The notes under the pieces are model-generated. The model searched no databases. It saw nothing but the letters and a program-made list of their open reading frames with translations, and was not told the origin of the DNA. Positions 14,938 through 21,295 of a DNA stretch of 64,000 nucleotides are shown here, piece after piece. Source of the stretch: Shigella phage vB_SboS_Gloob; sequence record OL615011, one strand, 5' to 3'. The position numbers were made by a program, and so were the translations under genes. Every line of letters starts with the position of its first letter. Position 1 is the first letter of the stretch.

Positions 14938-15308
14938 AACGTACCCCCGACAGAGATCAAGAACTCTTCTTCAATGGTCGTGACCGGGCGGCGGTTGCGG
15001 GTTTCGATCATGAAGCCCCAGCCGCCGTCGGCGACGTTGCCAAAGGTCTTGACGCCAAAGGTCTTCTTCCCGTTGGAGCAGGCATAGAAGTCCAGGATGA
15101 ACGGGCTACCCTGATTGTCGATCCCACGGTTTACGCCGTCCGCTACACAGCGCTCAATCATCTTCCCGTTCTTATACAGAACGAGGTCTTGGCCATACGC
15201 CTTGAAAGCATAAACGCCGCTGGTAGACACTCCGGTGATGACAGGAGGAGCGGAAACAGCAGAGAAGGAAGCGCCCAGCAGGGCAACAGCGAGGATTAAC
15301 TTTTTCAT
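14934..15308 (-). CDS. putative secreted protein
   Basis: ORF track 14934..15329; start moved to MKKLILAVALLGASFSAVSA (signal peptide) preceded by AGAG CTATATC. Confidence 0.5.
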   Translation of the reverse strand: MKKLILAVALLGASFSAVSAPPVITGVSTSGVYAFKAYGQDLVLYKNGKMIERCVADGVNRGIDNQGSPFILDFYACSNGKKTFGVKTFGNVADGGWGFMIETRNRRPVTTIEEEFLISVGGTL

Positions 15309-15367: not shown

Positions 15368-15613
15368 TTAGCTGATGTGCTTCAGAAGAGCGAAGAGGAT
15401 CGCGGCCTTGGCTTTCACCTTGCCGACGACGCCTGTCTCAACATCGACTTCTTCAGCAACCCACTCTTTGCCCTTCTTGCTGATGATAACGTCACGGCGC
15501 TGGGCATATACCTCTTTGGTCGCGTACACGCGGCGGAACCCTTTGGCGCGGAGTAGTCCCCAATTGCGGTCAATTTCTACGGAGGTTTCGACCATTTTGT
15601 TCTTATTTGACAT
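15368..15613 (-). CDS. hypothetical protein
   Basis: 81-aa ORF. Confidence 0.4.
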   Translation of the reverse strand: MSNKNKMVETSVEIDRNWGLLRAKGFRRVYATKEVYAQRRDVIISKKGKEWVAEEVDVETGVVGKVKAKAAILFALLKHIS

Positions 15614-15776
15614 CTGTGACCTCGATCACGTTAGCAACGTTGCGCCAGAATTCACGTCCTTCGGAATCAACGACCAAAATTTGTTTGTTGCTGCGAGCCT
15701 TAACTGTCAGGACAGGAGCAGTTCCGAACTCACCTACCCATTTGGTTTCTTTTACTTTCGATCCAGACATGATCAT
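15603..15776 (-). CDS. hypothetical small protein
   Basis: ORF track 15603..15791; start moved to the ATG with AAGGA spacing. Confidence 0.35.
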   Translation of the reverse strand: MIMSGSKVKETKWVGEFGTAPVLTVKARSNKQILVVDSEGREFWRNVANVIEVTDVK

Positions 15777-15899
15777 AATGTAATCCTTCATCTCAATCTG
15801 GTGAACCCCATCGTTCGCCAGTTATTGAATAATAGGATATTCCTTAGAGGAAGTAAACCCCTAAAAGTAAAAATCCCCAACAAACGTTGGGGACTTCTG

Positions 15900-16226
15900 T
15901 TATTTGCGCAGGGCAACCACGAGTTCAGCGAGTTCACCCATGGTCGGGTCATCGCCTTTACTACCCAGCCAACCGTCGTCGATTTCGACCTGAAACTCTT
16001 CTTCGAGGTCCATTACAATTTCGATAGCGTCCAGTTCATCACCGCCGAGATCCTTCTTGGCGCGGAGGCCTGCAAACTTGTCCAACGCATCGTCTGTGGC
16101 AACTTCACCGTCAATCATTTTCTTGACGTTTGGGTATTTCACCTCGTCTGCATCTAAGTTCAGATTGTCAGTGGCGTACTGAGCCAGATGACGCATGACT
16201 TCAACATATGTTGGTTTACTGCTCAT
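15900..16226 (-). CDS. acyl-carrier-protein-like protein lacking the phosphopantetheine-attachment serine (DSL replaced by DEL)
   Basis: DLGGDELDAIEIVMDLEEEFQVEIDD aligns with E. coli AcpP [26 protein letters not shown]; Glu codon GAA at the serine position. Confidence 0.6.
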   Translation of the reverse strand: MSSKPTYVEVMRHLAQYATDNLNLDADEVKYPNVKKMIDGEVATDDALDKFAGLRAKKDLGGDELDAIEIVMDLEEEFQVEIDDGWLGSKGDDPTMGELAELVVALRK

Positions 16227-16268
16227 GCTACTTCTCCCAAAGAAAGGCGGGTTGCCCCGCCCGTTGGA

Positions 16269-18512
16269 TTAGATTTTGATCTCTTTCTCTGCCAGTTCGG
16301 CAGTGACCTTGTACTTCACACCATCCACTTCAACTTCCATGGTGGACTCTTCCAGGTCGAGGTCGGTGAACCAGCCGTGGCCAGCAACGATACCATAAAC
16401 CACTTTAGACAGCGTCTTGTTCAGGGCGCGGACTTCGGTGATGGCCGCCTTGGCAGCAGCGTCGATCCAGTTTTCGATCAGCTGTTTCTGTACGGCTTCA
16501 GGCACGGCAGTGATCGCAGGAGACTTCACGAATGCTTCGTATTCCTTCAGAGCATTGGCGATGAACAAGTCACCCGCATTGAGTTTCTTGTTCTCGGCAA
16601 TCTTCTTCTGTACTGCCGCGATGCTCGGCAGAGAAGACGCTCCAGCGATCTTAACGTTCAGCTCACGGCTCATGTAGACATCCGTGGAGTCCTTCAGTTC
16701 GGTCTTCGGTGAGAAGCCGTAATCACGGATGCCGTAGGAGGACAGGAACTCAGCCGCCTCAGCGCCGTACTGTACTGCCAGGCCTTTGGCGTTGCCTTTG
16801 CCAACCAGTTCATCACGGAAGAACTTCAGCACCTTCTGCTTGCCTTTCAGGGCTTCCAGACGGACATTATCCGCAAAGAACTGAGCAGCACTGATGTTCT
16901 TGACCATGGCGCGGTTGACCAGCGGTACGCTTTCCAGGTTCAGGACAAACACTTCCGGACCACCGAACACATGGACGCCCATCTGGCACAGATTGGTTAC
17001 AACTTCAACATCAGCCCTGAACGGCAGAGTCTTCACGTTGATGATGCCGTCTTTGACGATGGTGTAGTTGCGCCATTGGAAAGTATCCAGTTCTTCAGGC
17101 AGACCGAACTTCTTCTGCACGAACTCCGGAATCGCCACAGTGCCGTGCTGGACAGTGCGTACACTGATATTAGGGCGTTCGGAGTTATAGACCAAATCGC
17201 TGATTGGCACAACACCCAGATCGTTGGTAGGTTCGAACGTCGGGTTCCACTCTTCGTGCTCGGCCAGCTTGAGAGCCAGGGCTTTGCGCTCTTCTTTGGA
17301 CTCGGCGTTCGCGATCTGTTCTGCCAGCTTGTCTTCGGTATCGTCCAGTTTCTGAGCCGTACCGCGACCGATGCTCTTGTAGGAGAACATAGGATGTTTG
17401 GTGGCAACACACACGCCAGCTTCAGCCAGATACGTCAGCACGTCAACGACGGTCGTCGCATCTTCAGCCGGGACCAGGTCATAGTCAATACCGTCAACGC
17501 CGCGCAGCTGGTCATCAACGATGGCCTGGGTCAGATCAACTTTGATGTTGGAGTAGTCCTGCTTGGTGAAGCAGTTGCTGTACTGTTTGATGAAGCGGAC
17601 GTCGCCCGTTTTCTTCAGTGCAGCCCACACCAGGTCTGCGTCCATGATGTGTACGCCGTAGAACGCCAGCACGTATGCCGCCTGGATGTCCGCCAGCGCA
17701 TCAAGTTGGTCGATCATGTTAGGATTGACGACCCACAGCTTCGTGACGCTCTCAGGGATGCTCACGTGGCCAACGGGATGCTCTGCGTCTGCCTGTACCG
17801 CCAGAACAGTTGCTACGCCGTTTTCAACGTAGATGGCATGATCATACAGCAACGGAACATCAACAACCACCTTCGGAACTGAGGACTTCAGCACGGTTTC
17901 CAGCTCGGCCTGATACTCAACCTGACCTTCGGCAAACACGTGAGTCGCACCGGAGCGCTCAGACATCAGAGCCAGCAGTTCGCGGTTACAGTACCAGCCG
18001 TATTCGATGAAAGTGACGTTGTCGAACGCGGAAGGAAGTTTTTCGGCGGTGTCCAGGATCTCATTGGAGCGCCAGCAGTTGTCATAACCATCGGTCATGA
18101 ACGCCAGGTTGTTGACGTAGCCGGGTTTCTTCAGGTCACGCGCAGTATCCATCGCCAGTTTCAATGGCTCAACAAAACCAGTACAGCCGGACGGTTGTAG
18201 GAAGCGGTCGATCAGTTTGTTCAGCTCGCTCAGGTCAGATGCTGCACTAACCTGACGGCCAGCGAACACAGTACCAAAGTCGCCACGGGATGAGAAATAC
18301 AGAACACTCACAGTGTCTTCCGGTTTCACCAGAGAAGGCAGGTTCTCCTTCAGATGCTTACGGACTTCAGGGAGCGCCCGGTACATTGAACCGGAAATGT
18401 CTACAACGATTACATGGTTGGACGGAGCAGCAGTCGCAACCACATTCTTAAATTCTAATGATTCAATCATTGTTCTCTTCGCCTTTTGCGTAAGGGTTAA
18501 GTTCAGACTCAT
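16269..18512 (-). CDS. large protein with N-terminal von Willebrand factor A (vWA) domain
   Basis: MIDAS motif VVVDISGSM near the N-terminus; 747 aa. Confidence 0.5.
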   Translation of the reverse strand: MSLNLTLTQKAKRTMIESLEFKNVVATAAPSNHVIVVDISGSMYRALPEVRKHLKENLPSLVKPEDTVSVLYFSSRGDFGTVFAGRQVSAASDLSELNKLIDRFLQPSGCTGFVEPLKLAMDTARDLKKPGYVNNLAFMTDGYDNCWRSNEILDTAEKLPSAFDNVTFIEYGWYCNRELLALMSERSGATHVFAEGQVEYQAELETVLKSSVPKVVVDVPLLYDHAIYVENGVATVLAVQADAEHPVGHVSIPESVTKLWVVNPNMIDQLDALADIQAAYVLAFYGVHIMDADLVWAALKKTGDVRFIKQYSNCFTKQDYSNIKVDLTQAIVDDQLRGVDGIDYDLVPAEDATTVVDVLTYLAEAGVCVATKHPMFSYKSIGRGTAQKLDDTEDKLAEQIANAESKEERKALALKLAEHEEWNPTFEPTNDLGVVPISDLVYNSERPNISVRTVQHGTVAIPEFVQKKFGLPEELDTFQWRNYTIVKDGIINVKTLPFRADVEVVTNLCQMGVHVFGGPEVFVLNLESVPLVNRAMVKNISAAQFFADNVRLEALKGKQKVLKFFRDELVGKGNAKGLAVQYGAEAAEFLSSYGIRDYGFSPKTELKDSTDVYMSRELNVKIAGASSLPSIAAVQKKIAENKKLNAGDLFIANALKEYEAFVKSPAITAVPEAVQKQLIENWIDAAAKAAITEVRALNKTLSKVVYGIVAGHGWFTDLDLEESTMEVEVDGVKYKVTAELAEKEIKI

Positions 18513-18678
18513 CAGCGGCTTCGATGCGCGCCTTTACAGAGTCCAGCATATTGTTGATAAACTCACGAGACTGCTCCAGCTGAGCCAAGAGCACATCCTT
18601 TGGAGCATAGTTCTGAATGCAAGCCGGAATACTTTCAGACGTCGCCTTCAGGTCGGTAAAACATTCTTTCAGTACCAT
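18463..18678 (-). CDS. hypothetical small acidic protein
   Basis: 71-aa ORF between the vWA gene and the NAMPT-like gene. Confidence 0.3.
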   Translation of the reverse strand: MVLKECFTDLKATSESIPACIQNYAPKDVLLAQLEQSREFINNMLDSVKARIEAADESELNPYAKGEENND

Positions 18679-18779: not shown

Positions 18780-20444
18780 TCAGATTTGTGATGCCAATTC
18801 TGCCACCAGAGGAGCAGCACGAACACGCGCATCTTCCAGAGTCTGGGTGTTGAAGAACTTGCCGTCACGATACACCAGCTGGTGCTGGTTGTCGGCGTCT
18901 TGCACCTGATCAAAGGTGATACCGTCAACCAACACTAGTTTACCCTGAGAGTCTTTAATGACTTTAAGGAAACCACGCGCAGACTTTTTAGTCCCGCCTT
19001 TGTCGGTCTTCGGCTCTTTGAAGATCTCACGGAATTCGCCGTTCACTTTACCAGCCGTTGCTTTCACTGCCGTGCCAGTACTGTCACGGGTGTTCATCTG
19101 GTAGGTGTAGGAACCGATACCGAACACCACGTTGATGGAAGCAAAGTTCCGGCCAGCCAGACGACCAAAGATCTGGTCTTCACGTGCCAGGGTGATGGAG
19201 TCGCCGTAAATCAGACCGATGTGTTCGTCCAACAGGAAGTGACCAGTTTCGGTCTGGGTCCCGCCAAAGATCTCCCACAGGCGCTGGATAGAGCCGACCG
19301 CTTCTGAACGACTGATGATATTGCGGTCATCTGCCATCAGAGAGTTGATCGTGCCTTCGCCTGTAATCAGGTGATAGGTGTTCGTCTCTTCGATGTGAAT
19401 GACTTCGGTGCTGCTAGACACGCCGCTGATGTTCAGCATAGCGCGGTCTTTGAACCCCTCAATGCGGTAGCCGCCGACGATATGAACTGGGTCGCCCGAG
19501 TCAGGGCGGATCACGACTTTGCCGTTGCGTGCCATGATAATATCTTTCAGGCGCGGCAGATAGTCGTCGATGACCTGCCAGTAATCCCACGCATCAGACA
19601 CGATGCTGACGATGCCATCAGGATACACGTCCTGCACCAGGCGGCGGAAGGTTTCGAATTCACCATCCTTCGTACCCATACACATCACGGCGTGTTCGGT
19701 AGCCGCAACAGAACCAGCAACGACATAGTCTTCGTCGATGTCTGCGCCATAATACTCTTCTACGAAGTCCAGGGCAGGGTTGGTATCGGTGCCTTTGAAG
19801 AACACCAGATGACCGGAACCGGAAGACGCCGCGTCATGCCACCCACTCATACCACGGAAGGAGAAGTCGTGGCCTTGGTAGTCGATGAACCAATGGTCCG
19901 GCGACACGCCTGTAGCGAGGGCAGCTTTCACCATCAGTGCCTTGTAATGCAGAGCGATGGTGGCGTTCGTCATCGGCTTCCAGATCTCAGAGCTGAACAC
20001 AGTCTCCAGATAGTTGGTCAGCCAGTAGAACTCCGGCAGGGTGTTGAACATCACATACACCGGAACGCCATATGGGCACATGGTGCCTTCAGGCAGAGCA
20101 CGGACTTCGATAGGCAGGTAGCCGAGGTCATGCAGGGCTTCAATATGCTCTGTGCCGACGCGGCCTGGACCCAGGACTTTGTTCATGCGACGGGCATACT
20201 TCTTCAACACCTTGGCCTTTGGGCGCTGGAAGAATGCTTCGTCAAACAGTTCGTGGAACCAGGTCATGAAGCCCTGGATGCCCCAGACCACCACGCCGTT
20301 CTTCGGCAGGTGAGAGTTGAACAGTTTGTTGGAGCGCGGAGTTCCGTTGGAGAACACCAGCTCGCTGCCTTCAGGGAACTGATAGATGTGCCCTGATTTG
20401 TAGAAGTCGATTGCATGGATTGGATCTAAGTGGCGCATGCTCAT
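18780..20444 (-). CDS. nicotinamide phosphoribosyltransferase (NAMPT/NadV) family enzyme; candidate nicotinamide ADP-ribose transferase
   Basis: Collinear with human NAMPT: LPIEVRALPEG...EFYWLTNYLETV, HDFSFRG, GHLVFFKGTDT, VIRPDSGDP. Confidence 0.85.
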   Translation of the reverse strand: MSMRHLDPIHAIDFYKSGHIYQFPEGSELVFSNGTPRSNKLFNSHLPKNGVVVWGIQGFMTWFHELFDEAFFQRPKAKVLKKYARRMNKVLGPGRVGTEHIEALHDLGYLPIEVRALPEGTMCPYGVPVYVMFNTLPEFYWLTNYLETVFSSEIWKPMTNATIALHYKALMVKAALATGVSPDHWFIDYQGHDFSFRGMSGWHDAASSGSGHLVFFKGTDTNPALDFVEEYYGADIDEDYVVAGSVAATEHAVMCMGTKDGEFETFRRLVQDVYPDGIVSIVSDAWDYWQVIDDYLPRLKDIIMARNGKVVIRPDSGDPVHIVGGYRIEGFKDRAMLNISGVSSSTEVIHIEETNTYHLITGEGTINSLMADDRNIISRSEAVGSIQRLWEIFGGTQTETGHFLLDEHIGLIYGDSITLAREDQIFGRLAGRNFASINVVFGIGSYTYQMNTRDSTGTAVKATAGKVNGEFREIFKEPKTDKGGTKKSARGFLKVIKDSQGKLVLVDGITFDQVQDADNQHQLVYRDGKFFNTQTLEDARVRAAPLVAELASQI

Positions 20445-21295
20445 TTTACACGTCCTGTATTTTCAGTTTTGAAAGGAAGGCCGTCGGTGGTGATATTCTC
20501 CCACCAGACAGTGTCGGCATACACAGCATCATAGATCCCGTCGAAAACAGAGAGACCTTTGCTGAAGATGCCATGGGTGACGAAGAGCGTCATGTGCTTA
20601 GGCTCGTGCTTCTGAAGCTCTTTACCCAGCTCAACAAACGTGCGCCCGCCATCGCAGATATCATCAACCACCACCAGATAGCGGTCTTTGATCAGTTCAG
20701 GGTTTGTAATGCTCACCCCAATGATCTCACCAGTCTTGGTGTCACGGTTCTTGTGGCCGTAGACAACAGGAACACCATCCAACGACAGGCTGAGGGCTTC
20801 GGTCTTCTTCGCCGCGCCGCCGTCAGGGGCTACTAGCACAGCGTTGTTCCCACGGATGAACCAGCCCAGATACTGCCGCACGATGTAATCTTGCGGGACA
20901 ACATGGACGTTGTTGATCAGAGAAGACACGACATGGCTGTGAGGGTCTTTGATCGCCACGCGGTCAAAGTTCATGCTATTGATGAACTCAGCCGCCCACT
21001 TCACGGACAGAGGCTCGCCGAAGTCGCAATGGCGGTCCTGGCGAGCATACGGGAAGTAAGGGATATACGCATGGAAGGTCGTCAGACGGTCCACGTTACC
21101 CAGGCCGCGCACGGCGTTTACCAGAAGCGCCAGCTCAATGAAGTCGGCTGATGATTTGATGTGGGCATCAATCACAACCGTCTGAATCTTACCGACAGGA
21201 ATACCAGCCTTTTGGATCTTGATATGTTCCTCACCACCTGGGAAGGTGAAGTGTTTGTAGAACACATCTTGGTCGTTCAATTTCAAACGAAACAT
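20441..21295 (-). CDS. ribose-phosphate pyrophosphokinase (PRPP synthetase) family enzyme; candidate ADP-ribose pyrophosphate synthetase
   Basis: IPYFPYARQDRH and VVVDDICDGGRT match Prs motifs; ATGA overlap with the NAMPT-like gene. Confidence 0.8.
   Translation of the reverse strand: MFRLKLNDQDVFYKHFTFPGGEEHIKIQKAGIPVGKIQTVVIDAHIKSSADFIELALLVNAVRGLGNVDRLTTFHAYIPYFPYARQDRHCDFGEPLSVKWAAEFINSMNFDRVAIKDPHSHVVSSLINNVHVVPQDYIVRQYLGWFIRGNNAVLVAPDGGAAKKTEALSLSLDGVPVVYGHKNRDTKTGEIIGVSITNPELIKDRYLVVVDDICDGGRTFVELGKELQKHEPKHMTLFVTHGIFSKGLSVFDGIYDAVYADTVWWENITTDGLPFKTENTGRVK

Follow-up and report, generated by a model that had tools for sequence, protein, structure and literature searches.

The acyl carrier protein-like gene and its family

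The window analysed here is a stretch of 64,000 nucleotides from Shigella phage vB_SboS_Gloob (sequence record OL615011). Its minus strand holds at positions 15900-16226 an open reading frame (ORF) for a protein of 108 amino acids, preceded by the Shine-Dalgarno sequence GGGAGAAG (16230-16237, minus strand) 4 nt upstream of the ATG, and lying directly downstream of a gene for a large protein with a von Willebrand factor A (vWA) domain. The 108-residue protein resembles the acyl carrier proteins (ACPs) in sequence and predicted fold and lacks the serine to which phosphopantetheine is attached. It is very probably a pseudo-ACP, that is, a protein in which the ACP fold and the conserved docking helix are maintained under selection and no attachment site is left, and it most likely acts by protein-protein binding.

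Between positions 15000 and 19000 the window is 90-96% identical to phages of the genus Agtrevirus (Ackermannviridae), namely Salmonella phage P46FS4 and the Shigella phages ChubbyThor, MK-13 and Ag3, and 260 records of phages of Salmonella, Klebsiella, Escherichia, Dickeya and Shigella match this region. When 5.8 billion clustered proteins and 1.84 billion representatives were searched, the family of the 108-residue protein turned up in Ackermannviridae-like contexts only. In P46FS4 the equivalent gene is located within an early/middle block of replication and nucleotide-metabolism genes, and both there and for the phage family as a whole, in RefSeq and in PHROGs, it bears the label 'acyl carrier protein'. 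In the open-access literature searched no paper deals with the missing serine or with the function of the protein. The gene appears there in annotation tables only, as in that of PhiSH19 (2011), and in one virion mass spectrometry study which reported a single peptide each for the vWA and the ACP-like proteins.

The similarity to ACPs is far above chance level. The Pfam PP-binding model (PF00550) matches the protein with 26.1 bits (E=1.1e-5), which passes its gathering score of 20.8, and the PHROGs match is phrog_4154, 'acyl carrier protein' (E=1e-54). The NCBIfam ACP models give matches of up to E=4e-8, their scores of 17-33 bits staying far under the equivalog cut-offs of 66-106, and the protein is therefore not an AcpP equivalog. 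All of the 60 matches listed in a phmmer search of the PDB (94 had E<=1) are ACPs or mitochondrial ACP subunits, the best of them being the B. subtilis ACP (7.8e-6). In the original prediction, the C-terminal 60 residues were said to align closely with E. coli AcpP. This length is not reached by BLASTP, which aligns 27 residues (17 identities between residues 58-84, KDLGGDELDAIEIVMDLEEEFQVEIDD, and AcpP 31-57, covering helix II and the next loop), but it does hold for the hidden Markov model alignments, which extend over residues 33-85 and 39-107.

Predicted fold

Comparison of a predicted structure with ACPs had been proposed as a check, and AlphaFold2 together with Foldseek does recover an ACP fold, at moderate confidence. 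The model, built from 28 family sequences, has a predicted local distance difference test score (pLDDT) of 70.8 and a predicted template modelling score of 0.68. Its confidence is low at residues 21-70 and higher (76-85) in helices II and IV, from residue 71 onwards. A Foldseek search of the PDB with this model returned almost only ACPs, with template modelling scores of up to 0.68 (normalised to the target), and the 108-residue protein can be placed in the four-helix carrier-protein fold. Helices I, II and IV of the model comprise residues 7-21, 67-78 and 96-107, respectively, and two short helices (residues 32-38 and 45-52) are formed within an insert in loop I. In place of helix III there is a non-helical conserved segment, W86-x-G88...D92-D-P-T95.

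Loss of the phosphopantetheine serine

In the Pfam, NCBIfam, PDB and BLASTP alignments alike, Glu64 stands opposite the phosphopantetheine serine (Ser36 of AcpP). Its codon, GAA, can be read directly from the window at 16035-16037 (minus strand), as had been noted from the sequence at the outset. The replacement is common to the whole family. Glu occupies this position in all 28 cluster representatives except for two with Asp, Glu or Asp is present in all 21 fetched loci examined, and the site reads GGDDLD in Kuttervirus phages. The divergent relatives (33-50% identity), comprising nine proteins and an ORF of Erwinia phage Bue1, have D-E-L or D-D-L. About 50 distinct relatives, with identities down to 33%, thus contain only Glu or Asp at the serine position and never Ser. 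The Bue1 ORF (vB_EamM-Bue1, MG973030; locus L089, 5316-5615, plus strand) is unannotated, encodes 99 residues and lies directly after the vWA gene; with the sequence AMDELDYIE and a profile match of E=5e-12, it is a divergent serine-less member of the family.

Four codons are used at this position among 20 distinct nucleotide sequences (GAA in 14, GAT in four, GAG and GAC in one each), and any Ser codon is at least two mutations away from each of them. Pairwise ratios of non-synonymous to synonymous substitution rates (dN/dS) relative to the window range from 0.06 to 0.39, and are about 0.06 when the hypervariable part of loop I described below is left out. The gene is therefore under purifying selection, and the loss of the serine is an ancient, fixed feature of a functional gene. 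That the Glu arose through faulty sequencing or assembly, or that the gene is the decaying remnant of a captured host acpP, has next to no probability and is effectively refuted by the comparison, because the same kind of change is present in about 50 sequences by way of four codons, dN/dS is much smaller than 1 and none of the loci examined has a disrupted reading frame.

Phosphopantetheinyl transfer needs the serine hydroxyl, and AcpS is supplied by the host. Without this hydroxyl there would be no phosphopantetheine arm and consequently no shuttling of acyl groups. The earlier claim that the protein cannot be phosphopantetheinylated, and hence is no carrier, is strongly supported by this chemistry and by the fixation of the loss across the family. 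The Pfam threshold that the protein passes and its label in RefSeq and PHROGs would suit a protein that is still a carrier, with an unusual residue as its loading site or an unusual group as its load. Such a role is highly improbable, as Ser, Thr or Cys at or adjoining the attachment position was found in no family member, the family alignment contains no invariant Ser or Cys anywhere, and its only invariant hydroxyl residue, T95, caps helix IV. The scores far under all NCBIfam ACP cut-offs also argue against it, and neither a phosphopantetheinyl transferase nor an acyl-handling enzyme is annotated among the 212 features, many of them hypothetical, of P46FS4, the closest complete genome. The label 'acyl carrier protein', which the gene bears in more than 270 sequenced phages, many of them put forward as biocontrol or therapeutic agents (targets being Salmonella, E. 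coli O157, Shigella, Klebsiella and Dickeya), is misleading for a protein that, on this evidence, cannot carry anything.

Docking surface and loop I cassette

The segment most similar to AcpP, helix II and the following loop (residues 58-84; 15975-16055, minus strand), corresponds to the acidic face of the carrier protein. Acidic helix II residues of AcpP constitute its established partner-docking surface. In the phage family D63, D66, E69, E75 and D84 (AcpP D35, D38, E41, E47 and D56) are invariant, and E76 and E77 (AcpP E48 and E49) are nearly so. L65, I68, V71, M72, L74, F78 and I82 (AcpP L37, V40, V43, M44, L46, F50 and I54) also belong to the invariant or nearly invariant set. Over the 27 residues the family resembles E. 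coli AcpP (median of 17/27 identities) as closely as do the genuine Ser-type ACPs (median of 18/27), a comparison set which is biased, having been picked by its similarity to the phage profile. AcpP D35 and D38 have been found experimentally to be required for docking to IscS (PMC13343975).

Loop I carries an insert of about 28 residues relative to AcpP. Within it, residues 24-47 (16086-16157, minus strand), which have low pLDDT, are hypervariable and are exchanged as a cassette among close relatives. Nucleotide identity between the window and P46FS4 is 91% in codons 1-23, 53% in codons 24-47 and 90% in codons 48-108, with no non-synonymous changes in the first segment and four in the last, and with synonymous sites saturated in codons 24-47. 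The drop to 53% between flanks of about 90% identifies codons 24-47 as a replaced cassette. The swap has taken place while the adjacent vWA proteins of the two phages remained 97.7% identical. At least three cassette types are seen among closely related Agtrevirus and Limestonevirus phages. The ACP-like protein as a whole diverges 2-8 times faster than the vWA protein, the exceptions being the very close locus L005 and the Kuttervirus locus L008, and this faster divergence would suit a host-facing factor.

Such a cassette raises the possibility that the protein is a small, very acidic binding module for a target other than an ACP client, for example a host defence or DNA-binding protein, as with acidic decoys of other phages, or a phage protein, with the cassette setting the specificity and the ACP fold serving as a stable scaffold. 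The composition of the protein (isoelectric point 4.2, 26 acidic residues out of 108), the recombining cassette in an otherwise strongly conserved gene, the early/middle location beside a variable NAD-salvage module and the family-specific invariant residues absent from AcpP are all consistent with this explanation. However, the conserved acidic residues are exactly the ACP docking set and not a general charge pattern, the cassette is of low model confidence and may be an unconstrained linker, and no PADLOC model matches the protein. We regard this explanation as distinctly unlikely.

The vWA neighbour and the transcription unit

The upstream gene encodes a vWA protein of 733 residues (16269-18470, minus strand). 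Its listed ORF, which extends to 18512, is 14 codons too long at the start, the homologues starting at Met15, the Met at 18470. A 71-residue ORF (18463-18678, minus strand; phrog_20065) overlaps the start of the vWA gene by 8 nt and is possibly the first gene of the unit; equivalent small ORFs precede the vWA gene in other loci. The residues of the metal ion-dependent adhesion site (MIDAS) of the vWA domain, D24, S26, S28, T97 and D127, are invariant in 63 homologues. Invariant motifs are also observed in the C-terminal part (R432-P-N434 and D474-G-I476). The 733-residue family extends beyond Ackermannviridae to T4-like phages of Yersinia, Pantoea, Pectobacterium, Vibrio and Shewanella and to a Paraburkholderia contig.

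Every ACP-like family member that could be placed adjoins a vWA gene and lies downstream of it. The gap between the two genes measures 38-52 nt in the genera Agtrevirus, Kuttervirus, Taipeivirus and Limestonevirus as well as in Salmonella phage CRW-SP2, Erwinia phage Bue1 and three metagenomic lineages. In the window the gap contains a GC-rich hairpin, GGGCGGG-GCAA-CCCGCCT, followed by TTTCTTT (16245-16262, minus strand), a terminator-like element that comes after the vWA stop codon and about 15-23 nt ahead of the ATG of the ACP-like gene. The hairpin is kept in every genus (loci L001-L017 and L085-L089), with compensatory changes in its stem (GGCGGG/CCCGCC, GCCGGG/CCCGGC and GGGGGC/GCCCCC). 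It may act as a terminator that attenuates transcription or as an element of mRNA stability, in either case setting the ratio of the two proteins. No sigma-70-like site for the ACP-like gene was found on the minus strand at 16227-16400, and inspection of the sequence revealed no T4-type late box TATAAATA.

The stop codon of the ACP-like gene is closely followed by a strong intrinsic terminator, TCCCCAAC-GTTT-GTTGGGGA followed by TTTTTACTTTT (15863-15893, minus strand). It has about -25 kcal/mol in most lineages, with a different or weaker 3' structure in Klebsiella-type and Erwinia Bue1 loci. Since no promoter was found between the two genes and a terminator follows the second, they are probably co-transcribed, the ACP-like gene being the last gene of the vWA transcription unit and expressed by read-through of the hairpin. 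Directly after the terminator a sigma-70-like promoter, TTTACT-17-TATTAT (15829-15857, minus strand), probably starts the next early unit, with ORFs of 62 and 81 residues. Its TTTACTTC element recurs at the equivalent place in other genera.

A rival explanation is that the pseudo-ACP is a dedicated subunit or ligand of the 733-residue vWA protein. In integrin I-domains, acidic ligand residues complete the metal coordination of the MIDAS. Glu/Asp64, flanked by D63 and D66 and predicted to be exposed at the tip of helix II, would do the same for the phage MIDAS, with the ACP fold acting as scaffold. The constant position 38-52 nt downstream of the vWA gene, the shared transcription unit with its compensated hairpin and strong terminator, the invariant MIDAS and the exclusive tolerance of carboxylates at the serine site all speak for such a partnership. 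Likewise, the vWA protein combines its vWA domain with a beta-sandwich module as in ArnB and Sec24, and modules of this kind (ArnB, Sec23/24) function as heteromers. In contrast to integrin I-domains with their ligands, ArnA-ArnB and Sec23/24, the phage vWA family also occurs without an ACP-like partner, and the contact in the phage is putative.

Several observations count against the partnership. A profile search at maximum sensitivity detected no ACP-like neighbour where vWA homologues occur outside Ackermannviridae, as in the T4-like phages Yersinia JC221 and Vibrio VmeM-32 and in the Paraburkholderia contig, although the MIDAS is invariant there too. The whole block, including the next gene of 79 codons, is syntenic throughout the family, and the adjacency is therefore weak evidence. 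The two proteins also differ in their evolution, given the faster divergence of the ACP-like protein and the exchange of its cassette beside a nearly unchanged vWA protein, and other viral serine-less look-alikes have no vWA gene nearby. The carboxylate-only rule does not discriminate, because the preference for Ser, Asp and Glu at a helix N-cap may by itself explain Asp or Glu. On balance we consider a vWA partnership rather unlikely. If it were true, it would offer a first handle on a 733-residue protein that is conserved across Ackermannviridae and many T4-like phages.

Serine-less look-alikes in other viruses and bacteria

The comparison of other viral loci clearly indicates that independent serine-less look-alikes of AcpP exist in other viruses. 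D-S-L is kept in 51 of the 67 other viral loci fetched and D-E-L is found in four of the 67, frequencies which are biased because the search profile and one search pattern favour D/E at the serine position. A protein of 79 residues with D-A-L is encoded in five others of them (for example at L034:4361-4600 and L040:5923-6162) and is 46% identical to E. coli AcpP. Near the D-E-L and D-A-L viral look-alikes no vWA homologue was found, and cultured phages yielded no close match to these proteins, which come from uncultivated viral contigs. In both loci examined, the 79-residue D-A-L protein follows an ORF of 137 residues.

The representative search also returned many bacterial, non-phage ACP-like proteins with D-[DE]-L. 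Several of these carry lipoprotein-type signal peptides (P0063, P0074, P0103, P0104, P0107, P0109, P0121 and P0134), and P0063 has three ACP-like repeats. Judged by their sequences, they look like a class of exported serine-less ACP-like proteins, which could not meet AcpS since the signal peptides imply export. Serine-less ACPs, so far viewed as an apicomplexan oddity, thus acquire a lineage of bacterial viruses together with further viral and exported bacterial examples.

Possible mimicry of host AcpP

The reading that we tentatively prefer, at somewhat less than even chances, is that the protein is a non-modifiable look-alike of host AcpP directed at ACP-docking sites of host proteins. As a pseudo-ACP, the protein very probably originated from an ACP of type II fatty-acid synthesis; it has kept the fold and the acidic helix II, has lost the serine in favour of Glu or Asp, and has gained the N-terminal and loop I elaboration with its hypervariable cassette. 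The carboxylate of Glu/Asp would be located where holo-ACP has its phosphodiester. In the infected cell the look-alike might take the place of ACP at the basic docking site on at least one host protein, presumably among those that bind ACP regardless of its arm, candidates being PlsB, MukB, AcpS and the enzymes of fatty-acid synthesis, and the hub would thereby be blocked or re-tuned during infection. We infer the binding to a host ACP client and the identity of that client, as we do the non-modification.

Mimicry of AcpP is supported by the exact retention of the AcpP docking residues, by the recurrence of serine-less AcpP look-alikes without vWA genes, and by fast, cassette-swapping evolution, which is typical of host-facing factors. 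There are precedents for an action of unmodified ACP: apo-ACP is described as a strong inhibitor of glycerol-3-phosphate acyltransferase and of E. coli growth (reviewed in PMC3896788), and the activation of MukB by AcpP is the same for the apo as for the holo form (PMC8602292). The suggestion, made in the original prediction, that an ACP mimic could titrate host ACP partners gains plausibility from the retained docking residues and the apo-ACP precedents, but the vWA partnership is a serious rival with about as much support. We rank mimicry of AcpP slightly ahead of that partnership.

A number of points weigh against mimicry. Host AcpP is present at about 100 uM (PMC8602292), and to compete with it in stoichiometric amounts a decoy would have to be expressed very strongly or bind with much higher affinity. 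The ACP-like gene is preceded by a terminator-like hairpin, lacks its own promoter and invariably comes last in the vWA unit. SpoT and IscS are unlikely targets because both need the modified serine (PMC3896788, PMC13343975). A pure AcpP decoy would not need a hypervariable cassette, given that AcpP is nearly invariant among the hosts. The family has invariant residues that are foreign to AcpP (Y7, N21, R55, K57, W86, G88 and DDPT at 92-95), and these point to a specialised surface. Finally, the predicted structure is of only moderate confidence, and the identity of the partner is wholly an inference.

A wider proposal is that non-modifiable AcpP mimics are deployed by Ackermannviridae, and in an independent development by other, uncultivated phages that have D-E-L or D-A-L proteins, as a takeover device that jams or re-wires an AcpP-dependent hub (such as PlsB-driven phospholipid synthesis or MukBEF), with Glu or Asp imitating the phosphate of the holo form. 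We consider this unlikely. If the protein is indeed an AcpP decoy, it would provide a natural, genetically encoded probe or inhibitor of AcpP-partner interactions, including those of an antibiotic target pathway and the AcpP-MukBEF link, and it would represent a new class of phage takeover effector, a cofactor-less mimic of a hub protein.

Comparison with known carrier proteins

With E. coli AcpP (PF00550) the phage family shares a homologous four-helix fold, the helix II pattern D-x-L-D-x-[IV]-E-[LI]-V-M-x-L-E-E-E-F and an isoelectric point of about 4. It differs in having Glu or Asp for Ser36 in every member, which should make a prosthetic group impossible, in a length greater by 30 residues with the variable loop I insert, in the replacement of helix III by the conserved W-x-G...DDPT loop, and in failing all NCBIfam ACP equivalog cut-offs. 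Genuine phage ACPs (phrog_5934; from jumbo phages and cyanophages) are likewise small ACP homologues carried by phages; unlike phrog_4154 of Ackermannviridae, which never has the serine, they keep it and are presumably loadable.

The closest functional analogue is the mitochondrial ACP of apicomplexans. Plasmodium mACP has also lost its phosphopantetheine serine and has retained the ACP fold under selection; it is a binding subunit of Isd11-Nfs1, and Phe113, which replaces the serine, contributes to the contact with the partner (Falekun et al. 2021, PMC8547962). Outside Apicomplexa those authors found serine-less ACPs only in the chromerid Vitrella (PMC8547962). The analogy is limited, as mACP belongs to a eukaryotic organelle and its replacement residue is hydrophobic (Phe, Cys or Gly) and stands in for the acyl chain towards the LYR protein Isd11, whereas the phage proteins have a carboxylate. 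The inhibitory apo-ACP of E. coli (PMC3896788) offers a functional precedent, being an unmodified ACP that is active as an inhibitor in hosts of these phages. However, that activity is an artefact of overexpressing a protein native to the host, and inhibition by the phage protein would be an extension by analogy.

Other neighbouring genes

PADLOC models match neither the ACP-like protein nor the vWA protein nor the 71-residue ORF, and membership in a known defence or anti-defence family was rejected on this ground. As described at the outset, the ACP-like gene is located beside the vWA gene and a NAD module, NadV being encoded at 18780-20444. The module of NadV and ribose-phosphate pyrophosphokinase (18780-21295, minus strand) is intact here and in Taipeivirus and variable elsewhere. 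Kuttervirus S118 lacks the module at this position and Dickeya phage RC-2014 retains a 'NadV' fragment of 110 residues, and the two enzymes are thus not constant neighbours of the pair. A functional link of the ACP-like protein to the NAD module was rejected, since the vWA-ACP-like pair persists in S118 and RC-2014. A gene for endonuclease V (denV) is found a few genes downstream of the ACP-like gene in P46FS4 (L001:12322-12777), S118 and RC-2014. The ORF list of the window contains no ORF of denV size at 15368-15900, which may point to a local indel.

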